Assembly: GCA_947178445.1 (NCBI GenBank) | Contig: CAMWYJ010000002.1 | Location: 96,479-160,478 of the forward strand | Direction: 5' to 3' | Source: an uncultured Clostridium sp. | GTDB taxonomy: Bacteria; Bacillota; Clostridia; Lachnospirales; Lachnospiraceae | DNA: 64,000 bases | Shown: in pieces, positions 36,061 to 63,387 of the stretch | Numbering within the stretch: the first letter of the stretch is position 1 | Layout: the number at the start of each line of letters is the position of its first letter | Notes under the pieces: generated by a model | What the model saw: the letters and a program-made list of their open reading frames with translations, nothing else | Told to the model about the DNA's origin: nothing | Database searches by the model: none | Position numbers and translations under genes: made by a program

Positions 36061-37110
36061 TTATATTATCTTGTCCAAAAGATAATAATTATAATTCGCT
36101 TTTTTTAATATTTTTTCAGGAATCTCTATTTTATCAGAATAGAAACTGTTAATACTATTTTTCACCTTTTCATAAGATGCATTAAAAATATCCATACACC
36201 TTTCTGAATATCCAATTTGCTCATAATATAAACTTGTCTTTGCATATTGTACAGAAAAACTCATAACAGATTTTTTCAACGTACAACCAACAATCCCAAC
36301 ATGAAATTTTCCTGTTATTACGCAATCCACATTATCAATAATTGTTATCAACTGACTGACATCTCTATACTTAAAAGTCATACAACGGTTTTTAGGAAAA
36401 TGCCGAGCAAACTCTTTAATCTCAGCATAACCGGCATAACCACCTATACCATCTGCACCTATTACAAAAACAATATCATCCCGTGTAAAAAACAGTTCCC
36501 GTACAGCTTGATAAACCTTATCTAAGTATTCCTTAACATTTAAATAATGAATAAATATTACTTTTTTTCCAGAATAACTTTCTTTTATCTTTCGTGATTC
36601 AGCACATTCTTTAATAAAATTATGCGAAATGAGAGTTTGTGCTGTATCTGCCGTAACGTATATTTTCTTCTTACCAGCTCCAACTTTTTGTAATAATCTT
36701 TTACTTTTATAATCCCTTACAGAAATTAAAACAGCTCTTTTTGCAATCAGTCCTAACATCTTATCCAGTAGCGGATATTCATAAGGTCCTATTCCCTGTG
36801 CTAGTAATATAATTTTTTTCTTTAAAAAAACTGCCTTAATACCTGGATAATAATATCTGGTTACTCTCTGTATTGTTTTTTTCAGAGAACCTGAATACCA
36901 ATGTTCAATATAACCCAAGTACCCTCCTGGTATAAAAATAAAAAAATCACACTCATTAATCTCTTTTAAAGTTGTATCTTTGTTATAATCAACTATTTGT
37001 AAGTTATTATCATATTTCCGAAGATTATTTATCAATATCTGCCTTAATAAATCATCTCCAAAATTTCCCACTTCACATTGCAGCGCTCCACAAAGCATTA
37101 TCTTCCTCAT
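36061..37110 (-). CDS. Polysaccharide pyruvyl transferase family protein (CsaB/WcaK-like)
   Basis: 349 aa. N-terminal GALQCEVGNFGDDLL and the general layout are typical of PS_pyruv_trans proteins. Confidence 0.7.
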   Translation of the reverse strand: MRKIMLCGALQCEVGNFGDDLLRQILINNLRKYDNNLQIVDYNKDTTLKEINECDFFIFIPGGYLGYIEHWYSGSLKKTIQRVTRYYYPGIKAVFLKKKIILLAQGIGPYEYPLLDKMLGLIAKRAVLISVRDYKSKRLLQKVGAGKKKIYVTADTAQTLISHNFIKECAESRKIKESYSGKKVIFIHYLNVKEYLDKVYQAVRELFFTRDDIVFVIGADGIGGYAGYAEIKEFARHFPKNRCMTFKYRDVSQLITIIDNVDCVITGKFHVGIVGCTLKKSVMSFSVQYAKTSLYYEQIGYSERCMDIFNASYEKVKNSINSFYSDKIEIPEKILKKANYNYYLLDKII

Positions 37111-37135
37111 ATCGTATCCTTTCTATTTTCTAAAA

Positions 37136-37723
37136 TCATCTATTTGACCAATACTCTAAAATTTGTTGGACTTTCTCTTTTTGAAATTGCTCGGGTGTTA
37201 GAACATAATAATTAAATTCTGCATCACGTATTGTCACTGTTTTGATTTTTTCAAATCCAAGCTGCTTTGAAAACGAATTCATTACTCGATTATCCTTTTT
37301 ATTTTCATTGACCATTCGATTTAAATGCAAGATTTCAAATGCAAATTGTATCGTTAAATATTTTGCTTCAATTGCATATGGTGCTTCTTTGGCATAATTC
37401 TCATCAATAATACAACTACCTTCCTCACAGGAACCGTCACTGATATCATAAAGCCTTATCGTTCCAACCAAATTTCCCTTCTTATTATGTATTCCCCAAT
37501 AAATATCATCCTTCCGGATGCAGTATTTCTGATACCATATTCTTTGTTGTTCTAAAGTAATGTCTGACTCCTGATGTAAAAAATATTTATTTCTTTCCTG
37601 ATTTCTTAACATTACAATATCATTCAAATCTATTTCTCTAATTGGAATGAGATTACAAAAACTACCTTCTATAACATTTTGCTTATAACTAAATACTATT
37701 TCCTCAAGATTCATTTTCATCAC
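37136..37723 (-). CDS. GNAT-family N-acetyltransferase (RimJ/RimL-like)
   Basis: 195 aa with the Acetyltransf_3-type pattern (..NEN..NRVMNSFSKQLGFEKI..). Overlaps the upstream gene by 20 nt. Confidence 0.7.
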   Translation of the reverse strand: MMKMNLEEIVFSYKQNVIEGSFCNLIPIREIDLNDIVMLRNQERNKYFLHQESDITLEQQRIWYQKYCIRKDDIYWGIHNKKGNLVGTIRLYDISDGSCEEGSCIIDENYAKEAPYAIEAKYLTIQFAFEILHLNRMVNENKKDNRVMNSFSKQLGFEKIKTVTIRDAEFNYYVLTPEQFQKEKVQQILEYWSNR

Positions 37724-38099
37724 CTGATTCTAATAATTCAACCAAACCAATCTGTGACATTAAGAATACTACTTTTCTGTTATTGAATAAAATTGCACTC
37801 TTTTCATCAGATACTAAAACTGCACCACTCGCAATCCATTTCTCTTTTTCCTGTTCTATATTTGCCACTTCATAGCATGTATGATATAAATTAATATGTT
37901 TTTTGACAAATCTGCTAACAGCATTTCCTTCTATTAACTCCACTCTTCCAGAACCTTCTAATTCTAACATGCACAACCATGCATCCTGTAAAGGATCATA
38001 TATTTTTTCAGTTCTACTCACAATTACTGTAACCGTTTCTAAAAACTCTATTGTCTTATCTATATTATCCGTTGCAATTCCAACATGGTGTAATTTCAT
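37704..38099 (-). CDS. VOC-family protein (glyoxalase/methylmalonyl-CoA epimerase-like)
   Basis: MKLHHVGIATDNIDKTIEF start and about 130-aa size are typical of the VOC fold. Confidence 0.7.
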   Translation of the reverse strand: MKLHHVGIATDNIDKTIEFLETVTVIVSRTEKIYDPLQDAWLCMLELEGSGRVELIEGNAVSRFVKKHINLYHTCYEVANIEQEKEKWIASGAVLVSDEKSAILFNNRKVVFLMSQIGLVELLESGDENES

Positions 38100-38102
38100 T
38101 TT

Positions 38103-38339
38103 CTATCTTCCTTTACTTTCAATCAAACTAAGTAATTCTCCAACTGTAGCTAAACTTGCAATTTCCTCTGTTGTAAATTTTATGCCAAACTCCATTTCCA
38201 CTTCCATAATCATTTGAAAATGTGTTAATGAATCCCATCCTTCTATATCATCAGCTGTAATTCCCGGTGCAATTACCAACTCTTCGTCTTCAAATACTTC
38301 TCTAAATATTTCTTGTATTTTTTCTTCTATCTCGTTCAT
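38103..38339 (-). CDS. Acyl carrier protein
   Basis: 78 aa and acidic, with the phosphopantetheine attachment motif GWDSLTHFQ. Confidence 0.8.
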   Translation of the reverse strand: MNEIEEKIQEIFREVFEDEELVIAPGITADDIEGWDSLTHFQMIMEVEMEFGIKFTTEEIASLATVGELLSLIESKGR

Positions 38340-38342: not shown

Positions 38343-40148
38343 CTAATCCTCCATAATATAAATTTGAAATACTGGTCTACTTTCTATATCATATTGGTAG
38401 ATCCTACTGTTTTTCTCTGTTTTTCCATCTTCAACATCTATTTCGCTAAAGCCCAATTGCGGATACAATTCTTTAACCAACACATTTTTTTCTGTAGGAA
38501 TGTATTCACCTATGACCTTATCACAATTGTGCTCATCTGCCCAATCATAAATATGTTGAAACACCAGATATTCTAATCCACGTTTTAATATTCGGCAACT
38601 CATAACCCATGTATCAATAAAACAGACGTTATCCTGCTTTTGCAAGATAACACAAGCAATACATCCATAATCACTAAATTTATCTTTTAATGAGACTGCT
38701 ATTAAACCATAATCCTCCCTGCCTAATAAACTTTCTATATAGGTATCCAAATACCTTCTTGTACGGACATTAAATTGGTTTGATTTATTTATTAACTGAA
38801 CAAACCTCTTTAACATTTTAGAAGTCACTTCTAAGATGTTTGCTTTCATTTCTAAAGCTTTCAAATATTCATCATAATTCAATGATATCTCCTGCAATTC
38901 TATCCTGGCACGATTCTTCTCATAAGTCTCTGCCCTGGCATAATCCTCTGGCGTTATTTGAAGCCACTCGAAAGCCCAAACTGCATCTAATGCGTTCACA
39001 TAATTTGCAGGATCCTCAGGTACATCAACCACTGTCACTTCAGGAAGATTCATTCGCACGATTTCCCTCTCCGCAGGATTATCATCAAAAAAAACCATAC
39101 TATCCAATCCTATATTTATTTCTTCAGCAATTTTTTTAATATTAGATGCCTTGTCCTGCCAGTTTGCCTGAAACGAAGCAAAATCATTTAAGGATAACGG
39201 CATTTTTTTATTATATTTAAAGGGCTGTTCTGCTATTTCCCTGTCATTTTTACTACATACAGCCAATAAAATTCCTCTGTTATTCAACTCTTTCAAATAT
39301 TTTTGAAATGTAAGATAAGACTCCCCTACAGCATCATTAACATCAATCCTTATCCCATCCCATCCTTCTTCTGCTACAATTCCACCCCATAATGTATTAT
39401 CCAAATCAAGTACTATACATTTTTTTATTTTTCCTCTCCACGCAACAATCAGCTTCACAAACATCTCCACAACATCTCCAATATACTGCAAAGAAAAAGA
39501 AACTTTACTTAATGCATACAGAGAACTATCAAACCAATTCTTTTTACCATAAAGCGAAGCTAAATACTCCAAATCAACTATTACAACATTATCAGAATGC
39601 TGTTGTGTTAATTCGATGTTCAACCGTTTTATAAAGTTATGTTGTGAAAATATATAATTTGCTTCAAGGTTGCCAAGTACTCTTTCGATCGGAATAACAA
39701 AATTTCCCTGTAATATCTTTGTCTGTGGTAAATATTTTTTAATGATGCCCCATATATTTTTATAATCGTCTATATAATATTTTATTAGTTTATTAATCCC
39801 ATCAATATCTTCATTATATTGTGGCAACTGGTTAATATCACGATAATCTGGCAATATAATTAGTATATCTGGCTGAAATTGAAAAAGAGCGGACTCTCCA
39901 TTCAAAACATCCATTTTAATCCCATTATATTCACCCTCATATATATCTGCACTTACCCCTTCTTTATAGAGTAAAAGTCTTAAAACTTGTACAAAATATT
40001 GAATGCTACATGATCCAAGAACCGCAACCTTTATATCAGAAGGCGTTGTATTCACAATATTTTTCACTTTTTTTGCAAGACGTAAAATACTACGATAGTC
40101 ACTCAAATGCAAGTTTTTTATTTCTTCCTGTACTTCTCTTATCTGCAT
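38343..40148 (-). CDS. FkbH-like HAD-IIIC phosphatase/acyl-loading protein
   Basis: HAD motif I VLDLDNTLWGG, CSKNDRE, FFDDNPAERE, and a C-terminal GNAT-like region; this is the FkbH-like domain layout. ATG at 40148 follows AGAGGTG. Confidence 0.75.
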   Translation of the reverse strand: MQIREVQEEIKNLHLSDYRSILRLAKKVKNIVNTTPSDIKVAVLGSCSIQYFVQVLRLLLYKEGVSADIYEGEYNGIKMDVLNGESALFQFQPDILIILPDYRDINQLPQYNEDIDGINKLIKYYIDDYKNIWGIIKKYLPQTKILQGNFVIPIERVLGNLEANYIFSQHNFIKRLNIELTQQHSDNVVIVDLEYLASLYGKKNWFDSSLYALSKVSFSLQYIGDVVEMFVKLIVAWRGKIKKCIVLDLDNTLWGGIVAEEGWDGIRIDVNDAVGESYLTFQKYLKELNNRGILLAVCSKNDREIAEQPFKYNKKMPLSLNDFASFQANWQDKASNIKKIAEEINIGLDSMVFFDDNPAEREIVRMNLPEVTVVDVPEDPANYVNALDAVWAFEWLQITPEDYARAETYEKNRARIELQEISLNYDEYLKALEMKANILEVTSKMLKRFVQLINKSNQFNVRTRRYLDTYIESLLGREDYGLIAVSLKDKFSDYGCIACVILQKQDNVCFIDTWVMSCRILKRGLEYLVFQHIYDWADEHNCDKVIGEYIPTEKNVLVKELYPQLGFSEIDVEDGKTEKNSRIYQYDIESRPVFQIYIMED

Positions 40149-40279
40149 TAGCACTGCACCTCTTCAAAATACATCTCTACTAAGTGTTTATCCAATTGAC
40201 CCCTTCATATATTACTGGAATATCTAGTCCCTCTCTTGTATCATATATATCATTCATATACATTACTTACAATAATATT

Positions 40280-40308
40280 ATTATATCCATTTAAACACTA
40301 TTTTTCAA
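40280..40308 (-). promoter_or_regulatory. Internal sigma-A promoter for the FkbH sub-operon
   Basis: Minus strand TTGAAA-17 nt-TATAAT (-35 at 40303-40308, -10 at 40280-40285) in the 212-bp gap. Confidence 0.6.
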
Positions 40309-40366
40309 GCATAAGTAAAACCAGAGCCGACCGTTGTTCTAGCGATTTATTACAATTTATCCTCAC

Positions 40367-41425
40367 CTATTGAATATCATCCTGCAAGCCTTCATTTACA
40401 ACATATGCCGCAATACGCCTGGCTCCATTTCCGTCAACTAATGACTGCATGCGTATAGATTTACTTTTCCGTTCCTCATAATGATTCTTGTAAAATAAAA
40501 GTGATTTCACACATTGCTCTATACATTTTTGATGATTCTGATAAGCATTACCGGCATACAGCATACAGCCAGCTTTTTCCCATACTACTGCTCCTTCCTG
40601 ATTCTCTGCCACTTCCAAACAGATAGAAGGAATTCCGCAGGCGCATAGCTCATAGGTAGTTGTTCCCGCTGCGGATACAGCAACATCACATTCACGCATC
40701 CAGCCAGCCATATTATCCACATTCTCATGCAGGCAGATATTGGAATGTAAACCTGCCAAGAGATGCAGCATCTCTTTATTCTGATTAAAACATCCAACAA
40801 TTACATGATACTCCAATTCCATCAATTCAGAATTCCTAAGCACAGCATCTAACAAATCACCCGCCACATTTAACTGATCTGTTCCTCCTGTTGTAATAAG
40901 TACTTTCCTGACCTGCGCATGCACCTCATAGGATTTCAAGGCAAATTCTTCTCTCAATGGAATATAACGACTTCCTATCAAAAAACGGGGATTTATACCC
41001 GTTAACTGATACACACTTTCATATAAATTTTCATCTGCAAAAGCACTATAATTAATCACAGTATCTACAGGATATGCAAACCGGCGCAAATCATCAATAT
41101 AAATTATTCTTGTATATTGTGATACCTTCTGTAAATATTCCTCTGTCACAAAATAGCTGTCCATAAGAAGAACCTCTACATGATGCTCTTTCACATAATC
41201 ACATAGCTTCTCTGTCTCCTGATCAAGCTCATTCCAAATAGTTTCTAATACATCCACGAAAAAGCCTTTTTGTTTGATTAACTTGCAGGGTCTGTCATCC
41301 GCCACCACAAAGGTAACCTCTGCTCCCATTTTCCGTATCTGCTCTGCAACAGACAAGCACCTCATAACATGTCCCGTTGCTATTATCTCATTACCATCGA
41401 CACGTATATATACATGATTTATCAT
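40367..41425 (-). CDS. pseG: UDP-2,4-diacetamido-2,4,6-trideoxy-beta-L-altropyranose hydrolase
   Basis: IRVDGNEIIATGHVMRCLSVAEQ N-terminus and a GT28-like C-half typical of PseG. Adjacent to pseC. Confidence 0.78.
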   Translation of the reverse strand: MINHVYIRVDGNEIIATGHVMRCLSVAEQIRKMGAEVTFVVADDRPCKLIKQKGFFVDVLETIWNELDQETEKLCDYVKEHHVEVLLMDSYFVTEEYLQKVSQYTRIIYIDDLRRFAYPVDTVINYSAFADENLYESVYQLTGINPRFLIGSRYIPLREEFALKSYEVHAQVRKVLITTGGTDQLNVAGDLLDAVLRNSELMELEYHVIVGCFNQNKEMLHLLAGLHSNICLHENVDNMAGWMRECDVAVSAAGTTTYELCACGIPSICLEVAENQEGAVVWEKAGCMLYAGNAYQNHQKCIEQCVKSLLFYKNHYEERKSKSIRMQSLVDGNGARRIAAYVVNEGLQDDIQ

Positions 41426-41444: not shown

Positions 41445-42584
41445 TTACATTTTCAATTGTTTTTCAACAATTTCGATTGTTTGCTCTACCACATAATCTA
41501 CCTGTTCCTCTGTCATACCTGCAAATAACGGAAGCGTAATCGCTCTGTCATAGAACTCCTCTGCATTCGGACAACAGACATCCTGATAACCATGTGTTTG
41601 ATAATATGGATGTTTATATACTGGAATATAATGTACATTTACTCCAATCCCAATTCTTCGCAGTTCCTCAAATACATTCTTCCTGATTGCTGCTGGAACC
41701 TGAACCATATATAGATGGTAGCTGCTTAAACAGTCCGGATGCTGGTAGGGTGTAACAATATTGGAATTACCTGCAAATCCTCTGTCATACCTGTCCGCTA
41801 ACTCTCTTCTATGTTTCGCAAAAGCGTCCAGCTTCTTCATCTGGGAAATCCCCAACGCACATTGGATATCGGTGATGCGGTAATTATATCCTAGTGCTAA
41901 CTGTTCATAATACCACGGACCATCATGGTTTTCTAAAAATTTCTCTTCTCTTGTAATTCCATGTGTATGATATAGTTTTAACTTCTCATACAAATCCTTA
42001 TCATTCGTTGTTACCATTCCGCCTTCTCCAGTTGTTACCGGCTTCACTGGATGAAAACTAAAGGTTGTCATATCGGATATGGTGCCAATTTTTCTTCCTT
42101 TATACTCACCACTAATAACCTGGGCACCATCCTCAATTACAATTAAATGATGCTTTTTTGCTATTTCAGTAATGGCATCCATTTCACAAGGCTGACCTGT
42201 GTAGTGAACAGGAATAATTGCTTTCGTCTTTGAAGTAATTTTACGTTCTATATCCTCTGGGTCAATATTATAAGTATCCTTCTTAATATCCGCAAATACT
42301 GGAGTTCCCCCACAATAAAGGACACAATTTGCTGACGCCGCAAAAGTAATTGGAGATGTAATCACTTCGTCACCCTGTCCGATTCCCGCTGCCAGACAGG
42401 CAATATGGAGTGCTGCTGTTCCATTTGATACGGCTACCGCATATTTAGCCCCTACATAATCTGCCACTATCTGCTCAAATTCAGCCACCTTTGGCCCCGT
42501 TGTAAGATAGTCGGAACGCAGTACATCCACAACCGCTTGTATATCTTCTTCATCTACTAATTGTCTTCCATATGGTATGAACAT
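41445..42584 (-). CDS. pseC: UDP-4-amino-4,6-dideoxy-N-acetyl-beta-L-altrosamine transaminase
   Basis: IPYGRQLVDEEDIQAVVDVLRSDYLTTGPKV start and a DegT-type PLP block (SFHPVKPVTTGEGG) are characteristic of PseC. Confidence 0.85.
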   Translation of the reverse strand: MFIPYGRQLVDEEDIQAVVDVLRSDYLTTGPKVAEFEQIVADYVGAKYAVAVSNGTAALHIACLAAGIGQGDEVITSPITFAASANCVLYCGGTPVFADIKKDTYNIDPEDIERKITSKTKAIIPVHYTGQPCEMDAITEIAKKHHLIVIEDGAQVISGEYKGRKIGTISDMTTFSFHPVKPVTTGEGGMVTTNDKDLYEKLKLYHTHGITREEKFLENHDGPWYYEQLALGYNYRITDIQCALGISQMKKLDAFAKHRRELADRYDRGFAGNSNIVTPYQHPDCLSSYHLYMVQVPAAIRKNVFEELRRIGIGVNVHYIPVYKHPYYQTHGYQDVCCPNAEEFYDRAITLPLFAGMTEEQVDYVVEQTIEIVEKQLKM

Positions 42585-42611: not shown

Positions 42612-43940
42612 CTATCTCTTCTTCTTAAATCTGTCACCATAAAATGTCTCTGTTGTCAATCTGTATGAAACCGGTCTTTTATATGATTCCAAATTTTCTT
42701 TACAATATTTTCTTAATTGTTTGATATAATCCCTGTTATTATTTTTATCTTCTACACAAATATTGGCAATAACACTTTGTCCTGTAATTGGATTTGCCTC
42801 ACCATAAACATATACATCTTTCACTCCATCAAAAGATAATAAAACACTTTCTATCTCATTTGGATATACTTTTTCTCCGCCTACATTTATTAAATCTGTA
42901 GTTCGACCCAATATTTTAAGATAATCCCCTTTTACCTCAACCTTGTCCTTTGTATTAAACCAGCCCTCTTCATCAAATGGAGATGGGGCATTCAGGTAAC
43001 CTATCATTGCGGATCTGGCTTTTATATATAAAATATCATCTTCTATTTTTGTTTCGTATCCCATGCCGCCTATTTTCATCCAAAGAGAATCTGAACTTTC
43101 CGACTTCGTAGACATAATGCCAATTTCTGATAAGCCATAAGTTTGTTTTAATCTCACATCTGGCAGAATTTTATGCAATTGCTTTAACGTCGACTCCGGC
43201 ATTGGTTCTGTACCATATGATATCATCTTAAGGCTGGATAAATCATATTTCTCATAAACTCTGCTCAAAAGAATCATATTGATAAATGTCGGTGATGTCG
43301 GTAAAAGCTCTATATCATACTTCTCAATAATTCCACACACTTCTTCGGGACTTCTGGTTTTCAAGGTAGCAATCATACACCCGCTTGACAATGAATGCAT
43401 GATTGTATTAAATCCACCTATATGATCAAACAGCAAAAATGTAACTGTACGTAAACATTTTCCCGGCTGATTAAATTTTTCTATTAAATAAGTTAAATCA
43501 TGCAACGCTGCTTTTGGCTCTCCAGTTGTTCCAGATGAAAATAGTATTAACCCCGGAGCTTTTTTTTCAATCAAGCCACGCAGCATTTCATGTTTCACTT
43601 CATAGTCAGTTTTCCTAATCTCTATATCCTCTTGCAAATTGATGACATATTGACTTTCAGAAATTCTAATATAATTCTCTTTTCCTTTAATCGTTTTCGA
43701 TATAGGAACGATGATAACATCACGCTCTATTAAAGCAACCAAAAACGCAATTGACACAGGTGTAAACTCTGCTATAATAGAAACAACATTTCCTGAAGAA
43801 ATATTGTTCTCCTCCAATAACTTTGTAACCTTTTGATATTCCTCATAAATATCTCCAAAAGTATATTCTTTATTATCTGAAACTACAGCCAGTTTGTCCT
43901 TGTTCTCTCTTAATCGATCTAATATATAATCTATCTTCAT
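42612..43940 (-). CDS. AMP-dependent adenylating enzyme (acyl/aminoacyl-carrier-protein ligase-like)
   Basis: AMP-binding signature LFSSGTTGEPKA, YGLSE and GEKVYPNEIE. 442 aa (short C-domain). ATGA overlap with the upstream SDR. Confidence 0.82.
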   Translation of the reverse strand: MKIDYILDRLRENKDKLAVVSDNKEYTFGDIYEEYQKVTKLLEENNISSGNVVSIIAEFTPVSIAFLVALIERDVIIVPISKTIKGKENYIRISESQYVINLQEDIEIRKTDYEVKHEMLRGLIEKKAPGLILFSSGTTGEPKAALHDLTYLIEKFNQPGKCLRTVTFLLFDHIGGFNTIMHSLSSGCMIATLKTRSPEEVCGIIEKYDIELLPTSPTFINMILLSRVYEKYDLSSLKMISYGTEPMPESTLKQLHKILPDVRLKQTYGLSEIGIMSTKSESSDSLWMKIGGMGYETKIEDDILYIKARSAMIGYLNAPSPFDEEGWFNTKDKVEVKGDYLKILGRTTDLINVGGEKVYPNEIESVLLSFDGVKDVYVYGEANPITGQSVIANICVEDKNNNRDYIKQLRKYCKENLESYKRPVSYRLTTETFYGDRFKKKR

Positions 43941-44632: not shown

Positions 44633-44634
44633 TA

Positions 44635-46523: not shown

Positions 46524-46527
46524 AAAA

Positions 46528-52696: not shown

Positions 52697-52731
52697 CTAA
52701 ATGACCTCCCTGTTTCATAAAATTAAAATTT

Positions 52732-54109: not shown

Positions 54110-54170
54110 CCACCCTTTAAAACTATAGTCTTTCGGATTTTCCGGTTTTTATTTTCTGCAAATCTGATCA

Positions 54171-56255: not shown

Positions 56256-56273
56256 AACTTAATATCCCCTTGT

Positions 56274-56687: not shown

Positions 56688-56739
56688 TTACCTCATACAC
56701 TCCTATGGTAACATTCCCATCGTAACAAATGGATCTCTG

Positions 56740-57723
56740 TTACATCTCTGTAATCTTTTTCTTTAACTCATCTACTGTAAGCCACTCCTTGTTCGTTCCT
56801 GAACTATATTCAAATCCCTGTTCCACCAATTTGCCTCCAGAAATAATCTCCTTGTCCCACCATTCAAAATGAGGATAGATAATAAAATGTTCTTCATACT
56901 CATATGTCGTCATAGAATCCTCTCTAGTAACCATGACTTCGTGCAATTTTTCACCTTCTCTAATACCAACTTCGGGCATACTGCAGCCCGGCAGCATCGC
57001 TTGAGCTAAATCCGTAATTTTAAAGGATGGTATCTTAGAAATAAAGGTTTCTCCACCCTTTGCATCCTGCAACGCTTTAATTACCAATTCCACCCCTTGT
57101 TCCAAATCAATCCAGAATCTTGTCATTCGATAATCGGTAATCGGCAATTCTGTTCCTCCATTATCAATAATATTTTTAAAAAATGGAATAACAGAACCAC
57201 GGCTGCCTGCAACATTACCATATCGGACAACCGAAAAATTCAAATCCCTGTTTCCTGTATAAGCATTAGCAGCAATAAATAATTTATCCGATACCAGTTT
57301 CGTACCACCATATAAATTAATGGGATTCACTGCCTTGTCCGTAGAAAGTGCCACTACTCTTTGAACCGAATCTGAATCAAGCACTGCATCTACAACATTC
57401 ATGGCACCATTAATATTGGTTTTGACCGCCTCAATCGGATTATATTCGCATGCAGGAACCTGCTTCATCGCTGCCGCATGGATTACATAATCTACTCCCT
57501 TTAACGCCCTTTTTAGTCGATCTTTATCACGCACATCGCCAATAAAAAATCTTAGAATATCTTTATATTCTTTGTACTTGTTTGCCATAACAAACTGTTT
57601 GTATTCATCTCTAGAATAGATTATAATTTTTCTAGGTGTATAATTTTTTAATACATATTCTACAAAATGATTGCCAAAAGAACCAGTTCCACCCGTAATT
57701 AATATTGCTTTTCCGTTTAGCAT
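56740..57723 (-). CDS. pseB: UDP-N-acetylglucosamine 4,6-dehydratase (inverting)
   Basis: ILITGGTGSFG, IIIYSRDEYKQ, HAAAMKQVP, YGGTKLVSDKLF and VRYGNVAGSRGSVIPFF closely follow the FlaA1/PseB pattern. Confidence 0.9.
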   Translation of the reverse strand: MLNGKAILITGGTGSFGNHFVEYVLKNYTPRKIIIYSRDEYKQFVMANKYKEYKDILRFFIGDVRDKDRLKRALKGVDYVIHAAAMKQVPACEYNPIEAVKTNINGAMNVVDAVLDSDSVQRVVALSTDKAVNPINLYGGTKLVSDKLFIAANAYTGNRDLNFSVVRYGNVAGSRGSVIPFFKNIIDNGGTELPITDYRMTRFWIDLEQGVELVIKALQDAKGGETFISKIPSFKITDLAQAMLPGCSMPEVGIREGEKLHEVMVTREDSMTTYEYEEHFIIYPHFEWWDKEIISGGKLVEQGFEYSSGTNKEWLTVDELKKKITEM

Positions 57724-58183
57724 GACATATCCTCCATTATTCTTATCTGTTCCAAGTACTCCATATAAACACTCAAAATTTCCCTAATGTAATAATTTTT
57801 CCATTTTTCTTACGCATTAGGAATAAAACACACAACAGGTTCTGCTTCCCGAAAAAAAGCAGATATTTTATAACTTCTTTTATTCGATCGACATCATGCA
57901 ATTGCTTTAGAATAGTTAACTATGTAAACTTTTACATTGTTCCATATATTTATTCCATTAATTTAATATCAAAAAAACTTGGTTCAGCTTCAACTTTAAA
58001 AAAATTTTCTTCAAAACACCTAAGTTACACATATCTATTAAGTATACAACAAATACTCTTCAAAATCAATAATCTGTATACCGCCTCTATCATCCAGTAT
58101 ATCCATAAATATACAATCTCTTGTATTTTCTATCTATACTACTTATCCCACTCTGAACCAATCTATAATGTCTTCAATTTTAA

Positions 58184-60076
58184 TTAAAAGCCTCTCGCCT
58201 TAAGAATTCTTTTTACATTTTTATAAACTGCAGGTTCATTTTGGGCAATTATTCCCACTATCTCTTCAACTCCCGGCATTTCACAAATCTCTTTTACAGA
58301 TAAACCAATCCACTTCGTCTGATCACATTCAGTAAATGGTGTTCTTATATCATAATGTCTAAGAAAATAATATGCCATATATGCATTTTCTATATTCTGA
58401 CATATTGCAGACTGTGAATGTTGCAAATAATATTGAATTTTATCAAAGTAATCCTGTTTGCTATGTGCTTTATATGCAATATCAATATCATCATAATACA
58501 CATTTGTATGCAGGATTACATTTTTCCCCATAAGAACCGATTCAATACCGGTTGTAGATGTATATGGTAAAACTAATTTGCATGCTTCGATATATTGATA
58601 AGTATTTACTTTAGCAGCTGCATCAGCAAAGAAAATTCTTTCTGGATATTGTAATAATATTGGTAGTTCTTTATCACATCTGGCATATAAAAATTCTCGA
58701 TCTCCATATTGTGCCGGATGTTCCCTTACCATAACAGTTGCATTTGTATTTTTCATAAGAAACTCTAACGTCTCTTTTAGCCATTCTATCTCATTTTCAA
58801 ATAAATTATTTCGACCTAGTGCTGCAGAATCCCAGAATATATTAAGCGGAATCACTACATCATATGGTCTCTCAATTTCCCCTCCTTTTACTATTTGAAA
58901 ATTGTAACCAACATTACCTTTAACACTATCTCTACGCTGATTAAAATCTTCTTTAGCCAACGTGGCAATATCTTTTCTCTCCTGCTCTGTAAAAGCATTT
59001 TCATTAATAAGTGTAGCGATTTCCTGCCTATGTGTAGATACCCCTGTCGTTCCGTATATTGTTATACCAATCTTATCACCATCATAAGTAGATACTCGCA
59101 TTCCCATTTTTTTTCCGAGATATGTATATACACACCGATGTCTATGTATCCCCGTATAGACATTAATTGTGTCATATGCACTGTTTTCTAAAAAGTATTT
59201 AATATGCCTCATTGTTTCATTTAAAAGATTTTCTGCGATTAAAATCCTATTTGCTTCTCTCGGTAAAAAAACTTCATCTCTACGAGAATTTAACCATTTT
59301 ACAACAATTGGTGCAAATTTATGAGACATTGCCAAATCCTCATCATCCAAATCCGTGCACTTTTCCTCATCAATATATGCAACACCTATATCTGGACATT
59401 TTTCCTGTAAAATATTTACAATGTAGTCTATATATATTTTTGCAACAGCTTCGACTCCCTCAAAATAGATATAACTATCAAAGCTCTTTAACGTATCAAT
59501 AATTAATGTAGATTGGTATCCATTATACCGCAAAACTAAACTTTGAGCCATCGCATACCATGTTATATGTTGGACCATTTCTCCTAGACATACAATACCA
59601 ATTTTTTTTCCTTCTTTAACAGGAATATTAGAAAAATATCCATCGGGTATCCGCTCCAGAAAATCTATAAAATCATATGCATCTTTTTCGAACTTTTTAA
59701 TCCGAAAATATGCAACAAATTCATTATATATATCATAATAGTCAGCCTCATCAATCCCATATTCCTGTAACTGTTCTCTAATAGCCATTACATGCTTACT
59801 CAAAATCAAAACAATGTAACTTCCTTTTTTCATTTCTTTTAAAATTTGTGGTGAACGAATTGGTTTTCCGTAAAGTTCTGTCCCTTGCTTTGCCTTGTTA
59901 TTATCCAAAAAACAAAGAACCTCATACCGATATAGTAAACTTTCCATCAAAATCTCTGCTGCAGTTCCACCACCAAAACAGATCAAATCTTTTCCTTTAT
60001 TTTTCTCAATGATCGATTCAATATATTCCATATTGATATGTTGCTTTGCATCATAAATTTCTTCTCTCATAAACAT
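58184..60076 (-). CDS. Large uncharacterised protein, possible GT-B-type (KpsS/sialyltransferase-like) glycosyltransferase
   Basis: 630 aa with a Rossmann-like N-terminus (LICFGGGTAAE..CFLDNN). The C-half has VIPLNIFWDSAAL, REHP and PYTSTTG motifs reminiscent of capsule/nonulosonate transferases. Assignment is weak. Confidence 0.4.
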   Translation of the reverse strand: MFMREEIYDAKQHINMEYIESIIEKNKGKDLICFGGGTAAEILMESLLYRYEVLCFLDNNKAKQGTELYGKPIRSPQILKEMKKGSYIVLILSKHVMAIREQLQEYGIDEADYYDIYNEFVAYFRIKKFEKDAYDFIDFLERIPDGYFSNIPVKEGKKIGIVCLGEMVQHITWYAMAQSLVLRYNGYQSTLIIDTLKSFDSYIYFEGVEAVAKIYIDYIVNILQEKCPDIGVAYIDEEKCTDLDDEDLAMSHKFAPIVVKWLNSRRDEVFLPREANRILIAENLLNETMRHIKYFLENSAYDTINVYTGIHRHRCVYTYLGKKMGMRVSTYDGDKIGITIYGTTGVSTHRQEIATLINENAFTEQERKDIATLAKEDFNQRRDSVKGNVGYNFQIVKGGEIERPYDVVIPLNIFWDSAALGRNNLFENEIEWLKETLEFLMKNTNATVMVREHPAQYGDREFLYARCDKELPILLQYPERIFFADAAAKVNTYQYIEACKLVLPYTSTTGIESVLMGKNVILHTNVYYDDIDIAYKAHSKQDYFDKIQYYLQHSQSAICQNIENAYMAYYFLRHYDIRTPFTECDQTKWIGLSVKEICEMPGVEEIVGIIAQNEPAVYKNVKRILKARGF

Positions 60077-60097
60077 AACTCCTATTCATCTTATATA

Positions 60098-61246
60098 TCA
60101 CTGTTTTTCAAGAATTGCCTGTACTACCGCTTTTGCCGCATTCCCCGTTTCCTTTGAACCAATTTCACAATGATAATCAATTAATTGTGCCTGGTATTTT
60201 TCCTCATCAAAAGAACAAATATGTTCAATTAACTCTTGTTCATTTTTACTTACACTATATGGCAACTCAAAATAATTAACATAAAAATCTCTTTCTATAC
60301 CATATGCTTCTATATCTTCTGCATATAAAAAAATGGGCTTTTTCATTATGGAAAACTCACTTATGACACTTGAATAATCTGAAATCAAAACATCCGCCCC
60401 TGCCAGCAACTCCTGCATGTCATCATATCCTGAAGCATTTAAAATTCTGTCATTATAAGATAATTCCTGCGATTTTTCCTCCATTGTTGGGTGCAGTCTT
60501 TTTAACATATACCATTCTCCACCAAATCGCTTTTTCAAAGCCTGCAAAATAGAAGCACCCTGTAATTGAATCTGATCTGTTTTCCTGCCCTTTCGATAAG
60601 TAGGTGCATATATTACAATCTTACTATCCTCAGGTAATTTAAAACTCTCTCGAATGATTGGAACATATTTTTCCCAACCCTGTACTAAAATATCATTTCT
60701 TGGTGCCCCACATTCTAAAATTTTCCCAGTATATAAGAAAGCACGTCTATATATCTCACTCCGCAGCGTTCCATTAGAAACCATAATGTCCACAATTTTA
60801 TTCATATGACGAGAGGTATGCTCATAGGGTTTATTATGAAAATTCGCTGGATTATCGGCACCAATCTTTTTAATAGGACCAGCCCCACCATGCCAGGTTT
60901 CAACAAAAAATTGTCCTTTACGCTTACGGTGATACCATAATTTCCGTTGATTGTCTACCCAAACGGCAGCTGTTGCTAACTCGTATATGGCTTCATTACT
61001 ATCCCACATTACCGTTCTTATACCTGCCGGAAATTCTTTCGTTTCTTTCTTTACAATCCATACAATATCCCACTGAGGATCCCTTCTCATTAACTCCAAA
61101 GCAATGTATTTGGGATTACATCCGAATCCATTACCATTATAATTGCAAAACACTGCTTTTTTCGGTTCAATTGGCATTCTACGATACCAATAATAATGTA
61201 AAGCAATTCTATATTCCTTCATTCGTTCACTCAATTTCATCATCAT
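60098..61246 (-). CDS. CDP-glycerol glycerophosphotransferase family protein (TagB/TagF-like)
   Basis: WHGG, YAPTYR and LISDYSSVISEF motifs. The start lies among ATGATGATG overlapping the upstream stop. Confidence 0.8.
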   Translation of the reverse strand: MMMKLSERMKEYRIALHYYWYRRMPIEPKKAVFCNYNGNGFGCNPKYIALELMRRDPQWDIVWIVKKETKEFPAGIRTVMWDSNEAIYELATAAVWVDNQRKLWYHRKRKGQFFVETWHGGAGPIKKIGADNPANFHNKPYEHTSRHMNKIVDIMVSNGTLRSEIYRRAFLYTGKILECGAPRNDILVQGWEKYVPIIRESFKLPEDSKIVIYAPTYRKGRKTDQIQLQGASILQALKKRFGGEWYMLKRLHPTMEEKSQELSYNDRILNASGYDDMQELLAGADVLISDYSSVISEFSIMKKPIFLYAEDIEAYGIERDFYVNYFELPYSVSKNEQELIEHICSFDEEKYQAQLIDYHCEIGSKETGNAAKAVVQAILEKQ

Positions 61247-61676
61247 TGACCTCTCTAACCGCATCCTTCTCTTTATCTTTTAAAAATGTTGAAGAAATCC
61301 CCTTTGTATATGTTAAATATACAACTTCTGCATTGTATTTTTTCAAATCAATCTGAGTCTGATTCCATCTTGAATCTCCCCGCCAATCATCACCAATAAA
61401 TATTGCTTCAAATTGAAACTGTTTCCATTGTTGCACTTTATCCAAACTATTTACAATTTCACATTGATCAACATAAATAATTGAACGAACAATTTCTGCA
61501 CGATCTTCCTCTTTTACAACCGTTTGTTTGTGTTTGTAATTTTGAACCAATTGATCTGAATTAACTCCAACAATTAAGTATTCACATTCTGCCTTTGCCT
61601 GTTTTAATAAATTTAAATGTCCAATATGAAACATATCAAACACACCTTGGGTATATCCAATTTTATATTTTTTCAT
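61227..61676 (-). CDS. Cytidylyltransferase-family protein (second TagD-like paralogue)
   Basis: GYTQGVFDMFHIGHLNLLKQAK (HxGH) and C-terminal ISST. 149 aa, with a C-terminal extension relative to its neighbour. Confidence 0.8.
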   Translation of the reverse strand: MKKYKIGYTQGVFDMFHIGHLNLLKQAKAECEYLIVGVNSDQLVQNYKHKQTVVKEEDRAEIVRSIIYVDQCEIVNSLDKVQQWKQFQFEAIFIGDDWRGDSRWNQTQIDLKKYNAEVVYLTYTKGISSTFLKDKEKDAVREVNDDEIE

Positions 61677-61684
61677 ATATCCTC

Positions 61685-62074
61685 CTACATCTTCAAATCA
61701 CTCTTAATCTTTGTCGTAGATATCTCCGGTGTTCTATCCAAATAAACCACTTCACAATAAGGCTTCAAAAAATCAAACTTCCCTTCCCAGTCATTTCCCA
61801 TGACAAATGTATCCACCTTAAATTCTTGAACATCCGATATTTTTTGTTCCCAGTTTTCCTCCGGTATCACCAAATCCACATATCGAATCGCTTCTAGCAA
61901 ACGCTTTCGTTCCTCATAGGAAAAGTATGTTACCTTTCCCTTCATCTCACTGTTAAATTCATCCGTAGACAACGCTACAATCAGATAATCGCCTAATGCC
62001 TTTGCACGCTGCAACAGATTGATGTGCCCATAATGTAATAAATCAAAGGTCCCGTATGTTATTATTTTTTTCAT
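61685..62074 (-). CDS. tagD: Glycerol-3-phosphate cytidylyltransferase
   Basis: MKKIITYGTFDLLHYGHINLLQRAKALGDYLIVALSTDEFN..RTPEISTT is near-canonical TagD; 129 aa. Confidence 0.88.
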   Translation of the reverse strand: MKKIITYGTFDLLHYGHINLLQRAKALGDYLIVALSTDEFNSEMKGKVTYFSYEERKRLLEAIRYVDLVIPEENWEQKISDVQEFKVDTFVMGNDWEGKFDFLKPYCEVVYLDRTPEISTTKIKSDLKM

Positions 62075-62088
62075 CTTCTGACTCCGTT

Positions 62089-63387
62089 CTAATTTTTAAT
62101 ATTTTGTATTTCTTCCACTAAATCCCTGCTGATGTATTTCTCAGTCATGTCATATAGCTTCTTTTGCAATACCCTTCTTGCTTCCTTATATTCATCTATA
62201 CCTTTTGTAATATCTAACAATGCCTGTTCCAACTCAGCCTGATTTCCTGCTTTTACACCTGGTGTATATTCCTCATAATCAAAATACATCTCCCTGGAAT
62301 CCTCCAGATAAGTCTCCAAATCATAATCAAAAAAAAGAATCGGTTTTTCTGCAAACAGATAGTCAAAATAAATCGACGAGTAATCCGTTATCAATGCATC
62401 CGATATTGGTATAAACACATACGGATCCGTGTCTGCGTCAATATTCACAATATTTCCCTTTTCAATTGCCAGAAACTGTTCCTTTAGCTTTGACTTTGGA
62501 TGCAGCTTTGTACAAAAAATCAAGTGGTTTTCCTGCAAAAAGCAGTTAAAGCTCTCCAAATCCATCTTATCAAAGAATTCTATTTCACTATTCCGAAATG
62601 TTGGCATATAATAAATCATTTTATTCTCTGTATCCTTGTCCAACAACTCCTGTATTCTGTCTAATGTACGTTGTTCTGTCTCCGTATAAAGATTCTCAAT
62701 ACATTCAAATGCAAAGCTGTCAATCCTTGGATATCCTGCTGTGGAAACATTTTTCGTTCGAAACGCCGAACCAAAAATCGGTTTCATAAATTCTGACGTG
62801 GCAAGTATATGATGAGATGGTTTCTCATCTGACAACCGCCTTGGAAAAGCTTTAAACGCCTCCCAGCCATTCTTAGGATGTCTCACTTGGTCAAATACAT
62901 TATCTGCCTGTATCTTTTTAAGGGGAACGCCATGCCACATATTAAATTTCACTGCCCCACCACTTAACCAGAAATGAATATCCTTTGAATAATTATCGAA
63001 CAGATACACCTTACCTCTCAATGCATACCAGATCCCCTTTAAGGAATGATAATCATACGCTTCATAACCATTCTCATTTAAAAAACTGACAATTCCCTTG
63101 TCATGACTAATCCATATCGGACGAATCCCTTTACAATTCTCATCCTCGGTAAAGGCATGTCCCGCCTTTTTCCAATCCGCTATACCAGTCTTTACCTGTT
63201 CGGATGCCCTGTCACTGTGCTGGCTTACATACAGATAAAGATATCTGGGATTATCCGCAAACCGCCGCCCAAAGGTGGAACCAAACAACCAGATATGCTT
63301 GTCTCTGGGAAATAAAAAAGATAACCAATAGATTGGCAAAAGCAGAAGCTGTCCCCAGTACTTCATCCCATTGATTATCTGTTTCAT
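62089..63387 (-). CDS. CDP-glycerol glycerophosphotransferase family protein (TagF-like)
   Basis: MWHG, YMPTFR and LITDYSSIYFDY motifs. First gene of the island (SD GGAGGAGGA before 63387). Confidence 0.8.
   Translation of the reverse strand: MKQIINGMKYWGQLLLLPIYWLSFLFPRDKHIWLFGSTFGRRFADNPRYLYLYVSQHSDRASEQVKTGIADWKKAGHAFTEDENCKGIRPIWISHDKGIVSFLNENGYEAYDYHSLKGIWYALRGKVYLFDNYSKDIHFWLSGGAVKFNMWHGVPLKKIQADNVFDQVRHPKNGWEAFKAFPRRLSDEKPSHHILATSEFMKPIFGSAFRTKNVSTAGYPRIDSFAFECIENLYTETEQRTLDRIQELLDKDTENKMIYYMPTFRNSEIEFFDKMDLESFNCFLQENHLIFCTKLHPKSKLKEQFLAIEKGNIVNIDADTDPYVFIPISDALITDYSSIYFDYLFAEKPILFFDYDLETYLEDSREMYFDYEEYTPGVKAGNQAELEQALLDITKGIDEYKEARRVLQKKLYDMTEKYISRDLVEEIQNIKN

Follow-up and report, generated by a model that had tools for sequence, protein, structure and literature searches.

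In the flagellin locus of Campylobacter jejuni, Cj1295 is needed for the 5-N-(2,3-di-O-methylglyceroyl)-pseudaminic acid carried by flagellin (PMC3068675), and the same locus contains cj1302, an FkbH-domain gene, and cj1301, which is annotated as an 'epimerase' (PMC7099621). Removal of an N-acetyl group was hypothesised by Hitchen et al. as the role of Cj1295. An unmethylated N-glyceroyl pseudaminic acid, substituted at N7, occurs in T. forsythia, and the enzymes that add glyceroyl or hydroxybutyryl groups to pseudaminic acid are not yet known (PMC5378307). In the group II polar flagellin islands of Aeromonas, which also have a Maf gene close by, genes for glycosyltransferases, an acyl carrier protein (ACP), an AMP-dependent synthetase, and a 3-oxoacyl-ACP reductase separate pseBC from pseFGHI (PMC7874193). 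A 2014 paper described, in the CA_C2191-2199 neighbourhood of C. acetobutylicum, a DUF4910 protein next to an NDP-sugar epimerase/dehydratase, Maf, an aminosugar N-acetyltransferase, an ACP, an FkbH-like N-acetyltransferase with a HAD-phosphatase, and a glyoxylase (PMC4000134). Flagellar variable regions of Clostridium contain genes for pseudaminic (Pse) or legionaminic (Leg) acid and are compositionally distinct and highly variable (PMC13317340), and Geobacillus flagellin islands hold fdtB/fdtC or tagD (PMC5109656). Here we analyzed a 64,000-nucleotide stretch of DNA from an uncultured Clostridium sp. of the Lachnospiraceae (contig CAMWYJ010000002.1; hereafter the window), in which positions 36061-63387 are occupied by a single large gene island. 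This island is likely the hypervariable core of a Maf-dependent flagellin O-glycosylation island of an uncultured, gut- or rumen-type Lachnospiraceae.

The ORF list and the domain scan place 30 open reading frames (ORFs) between 36061 and 63387, every one on the minus strand, with a coding share of 95.6% (domain calls are from Pfam and NCBIfam, and equivalog cut-offs are the curated NCBIfam thresholds). Genes often overlap, and the intergenic spacing ranges from -41 to +107 bp save for 2 gaps of 212 and 460 bp. The GC content of the island is 0.348, compared with 0.402 in positions 1-30000 of the window and 0.409 in the 5.9 kb that follow its right end in an overlapping contig. The composition dip is thus bounded on both sides, and the low GC is confined between 2 flagellin/Maf flanks. 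An earlier note on this DNA had described approximately 30 co-directional genes, only 2 gaps of more than 200 bp, a consensus promoter in one of them, and a stretch more AT-rich than its flanks. The count, the measured gaps, and the GC content (34.8% versus approximately 40% on either side) agree with that description, as does the promoter-like site of sigma-70 type TTGAAA-17-TATAAT (40308-40280, coding strand), a consensus match only, which agrees at 11 of 12 positions and was the top score of the scan. It lies in the 212-bp gap between the FkbH and PseG genes (40155-40366). The 460-bp gap upstream of pseB (57724-58183, minus strand) is a possible internal promoter region, in which sigma-70-like matches are weak (9/12 at best). 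No regulatory RNA family was found in an Rfam scan of the island gaps.

Flagellar genes flank the island on both sides. To the right, locus L090 (GCA_029060975.1, JAIDSY010000017.1) is 100% identical to positions 48184-64000 of the window (15.8 kb) and extends 5.9 kb further. Directly upstream of TagF2, the first gene of the low-GC stretch, and co-directional with it, L090 carries the series flagellin-DUF8042-Maf2-CTP_transf_3-NeuB/cupin, with a canonical flagellin of 274 aa (L090 575-1399) and a Maf2 protein of 619 aa approximately 3 kb upstream of TagF2. To the left, the window contains Maf1 (23110-24837, minus strand), a predicted flagellin nonulosonate transferase of the motility-associated-factor type (Pfam MptE-like and Maf_flag10_N; NCBIfam PseD domain, E 3e-23), and a flagellin-like protein of 261 aa (29215-30000, minus strand; Pfam Flagellin_N and Flagellin_C). 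The latter is 40% identical to the canonical flagellin and has non-canonical termini (MFWQIIEGG... at the N-terminus and ...KKRMQEEEQKRKIIQVN at the C-terminus), and it may, judging from its sequence, be a divergent or non-filament paralogue. The Maf and flagellin genes reported earlier near the island are thus present, and more of them lie past the right end. The acceptor had been left undecided between flagellin and a wall polymer. Because flagellin and Maf genes flank the island on both sides, because its scaffold recurs in other Lachnospiraceae, and with no TagO-, TagA-, LCP- or flippase-type gene found among the Pfam-scanned ORFs of the window, the acceptor is almost certainly flagellin and not a wall polymer. 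Two proteins are encoded between Maf2 and TagF2 (L090 3607-5880): CTP_transf_3, of 244 aa and with 34% identity to PseF, and a NeuB-cupin fusion of 498 aa with 27% identity to PseI. The pair is also found in locus L091, and the fusion in L088; this second nonulosonate pair suggests that a second, different ulosonic acid might be present on the same flagellum. An assembly artefact was rejected, identical proteins being on record from several sources and assemblies.

The island opens with glycerophosphate genes (all island genes named below are likewise on the minus strand). TagF2 (62089-63387, 432 aa) is a protein of the CDP-glycerol glycerophosphotransferase family (Pfam Glyphos_transf, 191.6 bits). 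It is followed by TagD2 (61685-62074), a glycerol-3-phosphate cytidylyltransferase for CDP-glycerol (TIGR01518, 199.5 bits versus a cut-off of 165.4), by TagD1 (61227-61676), a cytidylyl/adenylyl-transferase-family protein (Pfam CTP_transf_like) that is 36% identical to TagD2, and by TagF1 (60098-61264, 388 aa), a second glycerophosphotransferase-family protein (Glyphos_transf, 253 bits) only 25% identical to TagF2. Two TagF and 2 TagD proteins had been counted before. Both TagF assignments stand by their Glyphos_transf domain; TagD2 also stands, but TagD1 scores only 75.8 bits with TIGR01518, below the cut-off. The last gene of the island (36061-37110) encodes a polysaccharide pyruvyl-transferase-family protein (Pfam PS_pyruv_trans, 101.5 bits). 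Related loci (L numbers) were sampled within 10 kb of the anchors used to find them, and absence from them means absence in that range. Neither TagF1 nor the pyruvyl transferase has an orthologue or counterpart in the related loci sampled, and a metagenome scan with TagF1 returned only 2 short, uninformative contigs.

These genes raise the question of whether the island, or its TagD/TagF/Cap630/pyruvyl-transferase part, builds instead a teichoic- or capsule-like wall polymer containing pseudaminic acid and glycerol phosphate, flagellin not being the acceptor. The 2 Glyphos_transf proteins would suit such a polymer, but their best scores with the TarF/TarB/TarL equivalogs are 159 and 104 bits, far below the cut-offs of 500 to 1000, and the PS_pyruv_trans protein, which would suit it too, reaches 58.6 bits with the CsaB model, whose cut-off is 213.1. 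The reading of TagF and CsaB-like genes as signs of a wall polymer is weakened by these scores. A bona fide TagD is likewise expected in such a pathway, yet tagD has a precedent in Geobacillus flagellin islands (PMC5109656), and orthologues of TagF2 occur right after flagellin-Maf-NeuB/cupin genes in the same slot of L088 (57% identity) and L091 (53%). The Capsule_synth domain and KpsC-like fold of Cap630, a Cap630 homologue (L092) that adjoins a Leg-type cluster and has no flagellin gene in the surrounding 10 kb, and an ABC-2-type transporter 7-9 kb downstream of the island are further points for a wall polymer; the Pfam-scanned ORFs of the 64-kb window, on the other hand, include no SLH protein, Wzx/Wzy, LCP ligase, TagA, or initiating transferase of TagO/WecA type. 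Taking both sides together, we regard a wall polymer as very unlikely. By these comparisons the predicted TagD and TagF proteins are part of a conserved flagellin-island scaffold and not of a wall teichoic acid pathway. A wall teichoic acid operon was considered and rejected, since TagO, TagA, and LCP families were not found among the scanned ORFs of the window and the TagF-like proteins score far below TarF/TarB/TarL; the ABC pair at 27267-29038 may or may not be a TagGH-type exporter.

By gene content, the predicted pathway to the sugar itself is complete. The island encodes PseB, the inverting UDP-GlcNAc 4,6-dehydratase (56740-57723; TIGR03589, 531 bits versus a cut-off of 408), the aminotransferase PseC (41445-42584; TIGR03588, 511.9 versus 423.5), the UDP-sugar hydrolase PseG (40367-41425; TIGR03590, 205 versus 153.6), the pseudaminic acid synthase PseI (51647-52696; TIGR03586, 469.5 versus 340), the CMP-pseudaminic acid synthetase PseF (53402-54109; TIGR03584, 290.7 versus 205.7), and a PseH-like GNAT N-acyltransferase (51051-51665; TIGR03585, 93.1 versus 93.1). 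All 6 pse genes (B, C, H, G, I, and F) had been claimed, and 5 of them lie clearly above their equivalog cut-offs; PseH is the weakest assignment because its score exactly equals the cut-off. Identified by equivalog models, PseB, PseC, the PseH-type GNAT, PseG, PseI, and PseF would convert UDP-GlcNAc into CMP-pseudaminic acid, and enzyme identity supports the view that the island would make this nucleotide sugar.

A second set of genes resembles the machinery for glyceroyl pseudaminic acid. It includes a predicted FkbH-family glyceryl-ACP loading enzyme (38343-40154; Pfam FkbH_N and HAD; TIGR01686, 293 bits versus 146.7) and ACP1 (38103-38339; Pfam PP-binding), which starts 3 bp downstream of the FkbH gene and is the putative carrier for both FkbH and the AAC(3)-DUF4910 enzyme described below. 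These are followed by a VOC/glyoxalase-fold protein distantly similar to methylmalonyl-CoA epimerase (37704-38099; Pfam Glyoxalase_4; TIGR03081, 35 bits, below cut-off) and by a second GNAT N-acyltransferase, a distant relative of PseH (37136-37723; Pfam Acetyltransf_3; 24.9 bits with the PseH model, below cut-off). Elsewhere in the island, between PseF and PseB, are a MaoC-like (R)-hydratase/dehydratase (56274-56687; Pfam MaoC_dehydratas) and a 694-aa fusion of an AAC(3)-like N-acyltransferase to a DUF4910-DUF2172-HTH_47 aminopeptidase-like part (54171-56255; Pfam Antibiotic_NAT, DUF4910, DUF2172, and HTH_47). The 694-aa protein had been taken for an extra acyltransferase domain, which is correct for its AAC(3)-like domain, but its DUF4910/DUF2172/HTH_47 half had been missed. 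Residues 261-688 of the fusion match PDB entry 3k9t, the C. acetobutylicum protein CA_C2195, with an E value of 6e-107. Cj1295 of C. jejuni shares the aminopeptidase-like PIRSF family, and its neighbour Cj1296/7 is an N-acetyltransferase (PMC3068675). By analogy we propose that the fusion could be an N-deacetylase/N-acyl exchange enzyme of the Cj1296-7 plus Cj1295 type.

The Campylobacter precedent of Cj1295, Cj1296-7, and Cj1302, together with conserved synteny, is the basis on which an N-glyceroyl route can be proposed. FkbH would load a glyceryl unit onto ACP1, and this unit may be epimerised by the VOC protein. Before transfer, the resident N-acetyl group would be stripped off by the metallopeptidase-like DUF4910 half of the fusion, and either the GNAT or the AAC(3)-like domain would then pass the glyceryl unit to the sugar amine. 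No methyltransferase domain was detected by Pfam among the 30 island proteins, and with no O-methyltransferase in the island the expected product is an unmethylated N-glyceroyl pseudaminic acid. The proposal that the accessory genes remodel the nonulosonate is thus upheld in part: the FkbH-ACP-VOC-GNAT, MaoC, and AAC(3)-DUF4910 set matches the Campylobacter glyceroyl type (PMC3068675, PMC7099621), but placement alone does not show as much for all of the approximately 20 accessory genes.

The synteny was analyzed in a genome scan that used the alignment of the AAC(3)-DUF4910 fusion as the anchor. Relatives were found in at least 598 species-level genomes, and 80 loci were fetched with approximately 10 kb around the anchor. 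Three or more pse genes were present in 31 of the 80 loci and FkbH in 11, an ACP1-like gene was adjacent to the AAC(3)-DUF4910 gene in 27, and MaoC stood beside it in 22 (in P0015 MaoC is fused to the AAC(3)-DUF4910 protein). A distant KASIII homologue was seen in 2/80, and a TagF, TagD, FdtA, metallo-beta-lactamase (MBL), or pyruvyl-transferase homologue in 0/80 within that distance. The order flagellin-Maf-pse-AAC(3)/DUF4910-FkbH-(ACP-)VOC was found in Lysinibacillus antri, Aneurinibacillus terranovensis, a Clostridium metagenome-assembled genome (MAG), and a Bacillota MAG, with an ACP1-like gene between FkbH and VOC in 2 of these 4 loci, and a pse-FkbH-fusion arrangement also in a gammaproteobacterial MAG. 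VOC follows FkbH(-ACP) in L018, L059, L060, and L071; in L035, where FkbH was not detected, an ACP1-like gene precedes it. Because the glyceroyl-type module recurs beside pse, Maf, and flagellin genes across taxa, it can be regarded as widespread and tied to flagellin islands. The scan also revealed a stand-alone cassette in many rumen and gut Lachnospiraceae MAGs (L003/L004 10001-12744, likewise L006-L031), in which the fusion, an ACP1-like gene, and MaoC lie beside rpsF-ssb-rpsR. Its carrier, of 80 aa, is 40-50% identical to ACP1; an AMP-binding enzyme is nearby, and there are no nonulosonate genes within 10 kb.

Other related loci define the scaffold into which these modules are set. In L091 the order is flagellin-DUF8042-Maf-CTP_transf_3-NeuB/cupin-TagF(53%)-...-Cap630-PseB-PseF-...-PseI-PseC, and in L088 it is Maf-NeuB/cupin-...-TagF(57%)-...-TagD-like fusion-Cap630-PseB-AMP-ACP-NAT-DUF4910-...-PseF-PseI-formyltransferase-PseC. 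The order of the pse backbone is conserved, and variable cassettes, proposed to provide other acyl groups or additional sugars, fill the PseB-PseF and PseI-PseC slots: MaoC, a PglD-like acyltransferase, HpcH-type lyases, and a carboxyltransferase in L091, and the AMP-ACP-NAT-DUF4910 genes and the formyltransferase in L088. This conservation of slots fits the idea that the position of an insertion relates to the tailoring of pseudaminic acid. With regard to whether the architecture of the island recurs, the scaffold and single cassettes do, but the whole combination was present in no other locus sampled. Synteny and the 60-94% identity of the shared cassettes show the island to be a mosaic of cassettes shuffled among Lachnospiraceae flagellin islands.

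A mosaic could also contain evolutionary debris, that is, laterally acquired cassettes that are incomplete or silent, so that the product would be plain or singly modified pseudaminic acid. The KASIII cassette of the window does miss an FkbH'-ACP' pair that its relatives have, leaving 44 bp between SDR2 and KAS1, but catalytic triads and carrier serines are retained. Among the related loci sampled, none has a counterpart of TagD1, TagF1, the MBL protein, or the pyruvyl transferase, yet all 30 ORFs are intact and tightly packed, at the coding share given above. Low GC and the 90-94% identity of FdtA across loci, which indicates recent transfer, would also suit this view; a repeat search found neither insertion sequence (IS) elements nor bounding repeats, the only repeats detected being the paralogue pairs KAS1/KAS2 and PseC/FdtB. 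We consider it unlikely that part of the island is debris.

The remaining genes form 2 further acyl-carrier lines and an amino-sugar cassette. The first line starts with ACP2 (50725-50943; Pfam PP-binding, with a WDSL motif), whose orthologues, 68-84% identical, head the same cassette in L085 and L086. It continues with the 3-ketoacyl-ACP synthase III homologue KASIII-2 (49693-50709; Pfam ACP_syn_III_C; orthologues of 69-73% in L085 and L086), the short-chain dehydrogenase/reductase SDR2, a FabG-like ketoreductase (48876-49622; Pfam adh_short and KR; best NCBIfam models FabG and acetoacetyl-CoA reductase, all below cut-off), and KASIII-1 (47875-48831; Pfam; orthologues of 68-78% in L085 and L086). 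Both KASIII proteins retain the Cys-His-Asn triad when aligned to E. coli FabH, with which the motif positions agree. Next comes p167 (47371-47874), a small protein related to the C2185-like_N domain and a conserved partner of GT2-FdtB-FdtA; its orthologues in L086 and L089 are 49-50% identical and 158-159 aa long, the L086 one being annotated, weakly, as PF22674 and the L089 one having no Pfam match on record. GT2 is a soluble glycosyltransferase of 270 aa (46528-47340; Pfam Glycos_transf_2; 61% orthologue in L086). The FdtB-like DegT protein (45435-46568; Pfam DegT, 403 bits) is a second sugar aminotransferase, 35% identical to PseC and below the PseC cut-off (256.6 versus 423.5). FdtA (44965-45366; Pfam FdtA, 180.9 bits) is a 3,4-ketoisomerase-like cupin. 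It is 90-94% identical in L086 (17372-17767) and L089 (6603-6992), where the neighbouring genes are only 40-65% identical, a pattern that points to either a very recent exchange, or strong constraint, among gut Lachnospiraceae.

The second line consists of p96 (44635-44925), SDR1 (43937-44632; a FabG-like reductase by Pfam and NCBIfam, below cut-off), and an adenylate-forming enzyme (42612-43940; Pfam AMP-binding and AMP-binding_C, with no equivalog passed). p96 has no Pfam match and is assigned as a third, divergent ACP by profile and structure model: its family of approximately 1,600 representative sequences has an invariant Asp40-Ser41, with the Ser at the start of helix 2, the family profile matches the ACP structure 2l4b (E 4e-4), and the AlphaFold2 (AF2) model (pLDDT 93.5) is a four-helix bundle whose nearest PDB folds by Foldseek are ACPs. 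The adenylate-forming enzyme probably loads its acid onto p96. Between PseI and PseF lies an MBL-fold hydrolase, glyoxalase-II-like and a possible thioesterase (52732-53412; Pfam Lactamase_B, weak GloB similarity). Three ACPs had been counted before, and they are recovered here, 2 by Pfam PP-binding and p96 by its family profile, D-S motif, and model; Pfam and NCBIfam likewise agree with the earlier listing of 2 KASIII, 2 SDRs, MaoC, an adenylase, FkbH, VOC, FdtA/FdtB-like genes, MBL, and GT2, and they also identify a second GNAT and assign the FdtB-like protein to the DegT aminotransferases.

ACP2-KASIII-SDR-KASIII would yield a short 3-oxo or 3-hydroxy acyl-ACP, and the adenylase-SDR-p96 line would supply a second acyl group; the target could be N7 of pseudaminic acid or a 3-amino-3,6-dideoxyhexose that FdtA/FdtB would make and GT2 would transfer. 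The earlier note had suggested from the placement between pse genes that the approximately 20 accessory genes act on the nonulosonate. Placement is a weaker guide for the KASIII and Fdt cassettes, which are also found in Neu/Leg-type loci or with no pse genes within 10 kb. Loci L086 and L087, which have no pse gene in range, show the block ACP2-KAS2-SDR2-(FkbH'-ACP')-KAS1-p167-GT2-FdtB-FdtA in the order of the window and at 50-90% identity; in L085 the KASIII cassette sits inside a Maf/NeuB/NeuC-type island and is followed by GT2 and DegT genes; and p167-GT2-FdtB-FdtA occurs alone in L089, upstream of Cap630-PseB (FdtA 94%). As the 2 cassettes move jointly or singly and in the absence of pse genes, they may act on a 3-amino sugar rather than on pseudaminic acid. 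The FkbH'-ACP' pair lies between SDR2 and KAS1 in L085 and L086 and is missing at that position in the window. The window's own FkbH is of the FkbH-ACP-VOC type and shares just 31-33% identity with FkbH'. The FkbH+ACP+FabH-like arrangement of tetronate-type cassettes is thus absent here, no FkbH standing between SDR2 and KAS1.

On this evidence, the KASIII and adenylase lines might both N-acylate the FdtA/FdtB 3-amino-3,6-dideoxyhexose, which GT2 would transfer to flagellin as a second sugar, only the FkbH/DUF4910 module remodelling the nonulosonate. The mobility of the Fdt genes on their own, the L085-L087 arrangements, and the occurrence of fdt genes in Geobacillus flagellin islands (PMC5109656) argue for it. 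The window, however, holds no rmlA/rmlB for the dTDP-4-keto-6-deoxyglucose precursor and no FdtC-type N-acyltransferase, and the cassette starts right after the PseH-like GNAT, in the PseI-PseC slot that in L088 is filled by a formyltransferase, likely N7-acylating; moreover, N-hydroxybutyryl pseudaminic acids are known (PMC5378307). We rate the amino-sugar target as a serious option that falls a little short of an even chance. It concerns a sub-step and is compatible with the flagellin-island reading. Two side observations were made on the KASIII genes. A single-protein scan of the genome collection with KASIII-2 found no relative, and many KASIII-2 homologues of approximately 40% identity are approximately 560 aa long, some annotated as KASIII-SDR fusions, so that KASIII plus ketoreductase also exists as one polypeptide. 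In L086/L087 (1-3110) the KASIII cassette lies beside a PEP mutase/cytidylyltransferase-like fusion and an NTP-transferase/TPP-decarboxylase fusion, which hints that phosphonate-decorated glycans may exist in this island family.

Between TagF1 and PseB lies Cap630 (58184-60076), a 630-aa protein with a C2185-like_N and a Capsule_synth domain (PF05159, 27.2 bits versus 20). Its family is small (67 matches), and homologues carry PF22674 and PF05159. The earlier note had given no interpretation of Cap630 or of p167. A sequence search of the PDB returned nothing. In the PDB, the folds closest to the AF2 model (pLDDT 94.1) are those of the CMP-Kdo transferases KpsC and WbbB (Foldseek top matches 8fux, 6mgc, 6mgd, 8csb, and 5fa0; E 1e-7 to 6e-6), with target TM-scores of approximately 0.5 for KpsC and 0.4 for WbbB and only 12-15% identity to solved structures. 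Residues R451/H453/P454 and S507/T508/G510/E512 are invariant in the family and are candidate catalytic or CMP-binding motifs. Cap630 is directly upstream of PseB in the window, in L028 (Anaerosporobacter mobilis), and in L088, L089, and L091, and in L092 it is upstream of a Leg-type cluster with a Leg-type dehydratase. The gene order in L028, from A. mobilis DSM 15930, is Cap630-PseB-AMP-DUF4910-PseF-PseI-PseC-PseG. Transfer of pseudaminic acid is proven for KpsS1, which is related to KpsC and WbbB (PMC12887879). Fold and gene neighbourhood make Cap630 a candidate CMP-nonulosonate (pseudaminic acid) glycosyltransferase.

Returning to flagellin as the acceptor, an assembly sequence can be sketched. 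The Maf enzymes would attach a nonulosonate to Ser/Thr residues of flagellin, TagD2 would make CDP-glycerol from which the TagF-like enzymes would add glycerol phosphate, Cap630 would add a further nonulosonate, and the pyruvyl-transferase-family protein may cap the glycan. The fullest version of this scheme, in which flagellin carries a teichoic-acid-like chain of Maf-attached N-glyceroyl or N-hydroxyacyl pseudaminic acid extended with glycerol phosphate and further nonulosonate by the TagF-like proteins and Cap630, 3 carrier lines supply it with non-acetyl N-acyl groups, and the fusion is a general acyl exchanger, is doubtful as a whole. Several points weigh against the flagellin-island reading itself. 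Genes of the TagF, Capsule_synth, and pyruvyl-transferase families belong more usually to wall-polymer and capsule pathways, and an ABC-2-type transporter pair (27267-29038, ABC2_membrane_4 type) lies downstream of the island; the flagellin-like gene within the window has atypical termini, and 6 kb of unrelated genes lie between it and the island; KASIII and Fdt cassettes of 60-94% identity exist elsewhere without pse genes or in Neu/Leg-type loci; the link to Campylobacter draws on shared Pfam/PIRSF families and literature, not on direct sequence comparison; the substrates of the accessory enzymes are guesses because no curated equivalog was passed apart from FkbH (TIGR01686) and TagD2 (TIGR01518); and the organism is represented by a MAG only.

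The surroundings of the island were also inspected. The intergenic region upstream of it (63388-64000, minus strand) continues past 64000 into the flagellar genes. Approximately 75 bp 5' of the TagF2 start, at 63461-63480 (minus strand), it contains TAAT-N15-aCCGATAT, a sigma-D/sigma-28-like site with a perfect -10 and a 3/4 -35; it is the sole CCGATAT site that is both intergenic and correctly oriented, and it constitutes weak sigma-D-like evidence, possibly a chance match because CCGATAT is frequent in the window. A strict sigma-D (sigma-28) pattern gave 1 match, at chance level and outside the island, and no sigma-D-like motif was found upstream of the flagellin-like gene 29215-30000. Positions 30153-35726 hold mixed-strand genes unrelated to glycosylation, of intermediate GC (0.368), among them an XRE-type HTH regulator (31511-32059), a fragment of a WHH nuclease toxin-domain protein (32756-33388), and a protein containing CBM_X2 (34383-35726), in whose gene 276 bp are duplicated in tandem at 35195-35719. 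A 795-aa ORF (24816-27203, minus strand) overlaps the start of Maf1 and has no Pfam match, no meaningful PDB sequence match, and no homologue in the fetched loci. Further left, an Rfam GA-cis RNA (14239-14323, minus strand; 59.4 bits versus a gathering score of 34.7) lies just 5' of a Cys/Met-metabolism PLP enzyme gene (12943-14217), and SipL and other sporulation genes identify the host as a spore-forming member of the Clostridia.

In the literature we found no description of the full combination, of a recurrent Lachnospiraceae scaffold that joins TagF to Cap630, of nonulosonate transfer by Cap630, or of a widespread exchange enzyme, linked to acyl-ACP, in the form of the AAC(3)-DUF4910 fusion, none joining flagellin, glycerophosphotransferase, and nonulosonic acid, and no flagellin glycan structure for Lachnospiraceae. 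Among gut antigens the flagellins of this family are dominant, and some variants bind TLR5 yet give weak signalling. FkbH-ACP-VOC-GNAT, and AAC(3)-DUF4910 as N-acyl exchanger, are candidates for the enzymology of glyceroyl and hydroxybutyryl pseudaminic acid, Cap630 is a candidate non-Maf nonulosonate transferase, and the island illustrates how flagellin islands diversify by cassette swapping. It is of value as a well-stocked example that yields testable hypotheses on enzymes, not as a new principle, the general phenomenon being known in Campylobacter, Aeromonas, Geobacillus, and Clostridium.

Compared with the C. jejuni flagellin locus, the island is alike in interleaving pse genes with a DUF2172/DUF4910-type protein, an N-acetyltransferase, an FkbH-domain protein, and an 'epimerase' (PMC3068675, PMC7099621), and in having Maf and flagellin genes in the same locus. 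It differs in that the N-acetyltransferase and DUF4910 parts are fused in one 694-aa protein, in the absence of an O-methyltransferase and of phase-variable poly-G tracts, in the added TagD/TagF, Cap630, FdtA/FdtB/GT2, MBL, and pyruvyl transferase, and in its Gram-positive, spore-forming host. The C. jejuni locus also contains acpP2, acpP3, fabH2, and an adenylating enzyme. The adenylase-SDR-ACP trio (42612-44925) is like the Aeromonas group II islands in composition; those islands have luxC/luxE-type genes, are without FkbH, DUF4910, KASIII, TagF, and Cap630, and direct a heptasaccharide on a pseudaminic acid base. The C. acetobutylicum neighbourhood, for which KASIII, Fdt, or TagF modules are not reported, is much smaller and was labelled only 'modified polysaccharide biosynthesis', with no link to glyceroyl pseudaminic acid (PMC4000134). 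Text searches of the Clostridium and Geobacillus papers (PMC13317340, PMC5109656) turned up no ACP/KASIII/FkbH or TagF-type genes, and the present island lies between 2 flagellin/Maf sets, not between flgB and fliD. With KpsC/KpsS (GT107), WbbB (GT99), and KpsS1 (GT118), Cap630 shares the Capsule_synth domain and a KpsC/WbbB-like fold; it has invariant His-Pro and Ser-Thr...Glu motifs of its own family and is genomically coupled to a CMP-nonulosonate pathway, but it has an extra N-terminal C2185-like Rossmann domain and comes from Firmicutes flagellin islands, whereas KpsC-type enzymes come from Gram-negative capsule loci. The earlier statement that the combination has no characterised precedent was thus overstated, its ingredients being known from Aeromonas, Campylobacter, Geobacillus, and C. 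acetobutylicum (PMC7874193, PMC7099621, PMC3068675, PMC5109656, PMC4000134): the island is a real, unusually large, and elaborate form of a known type of system, every ingredient of which has a precedent.

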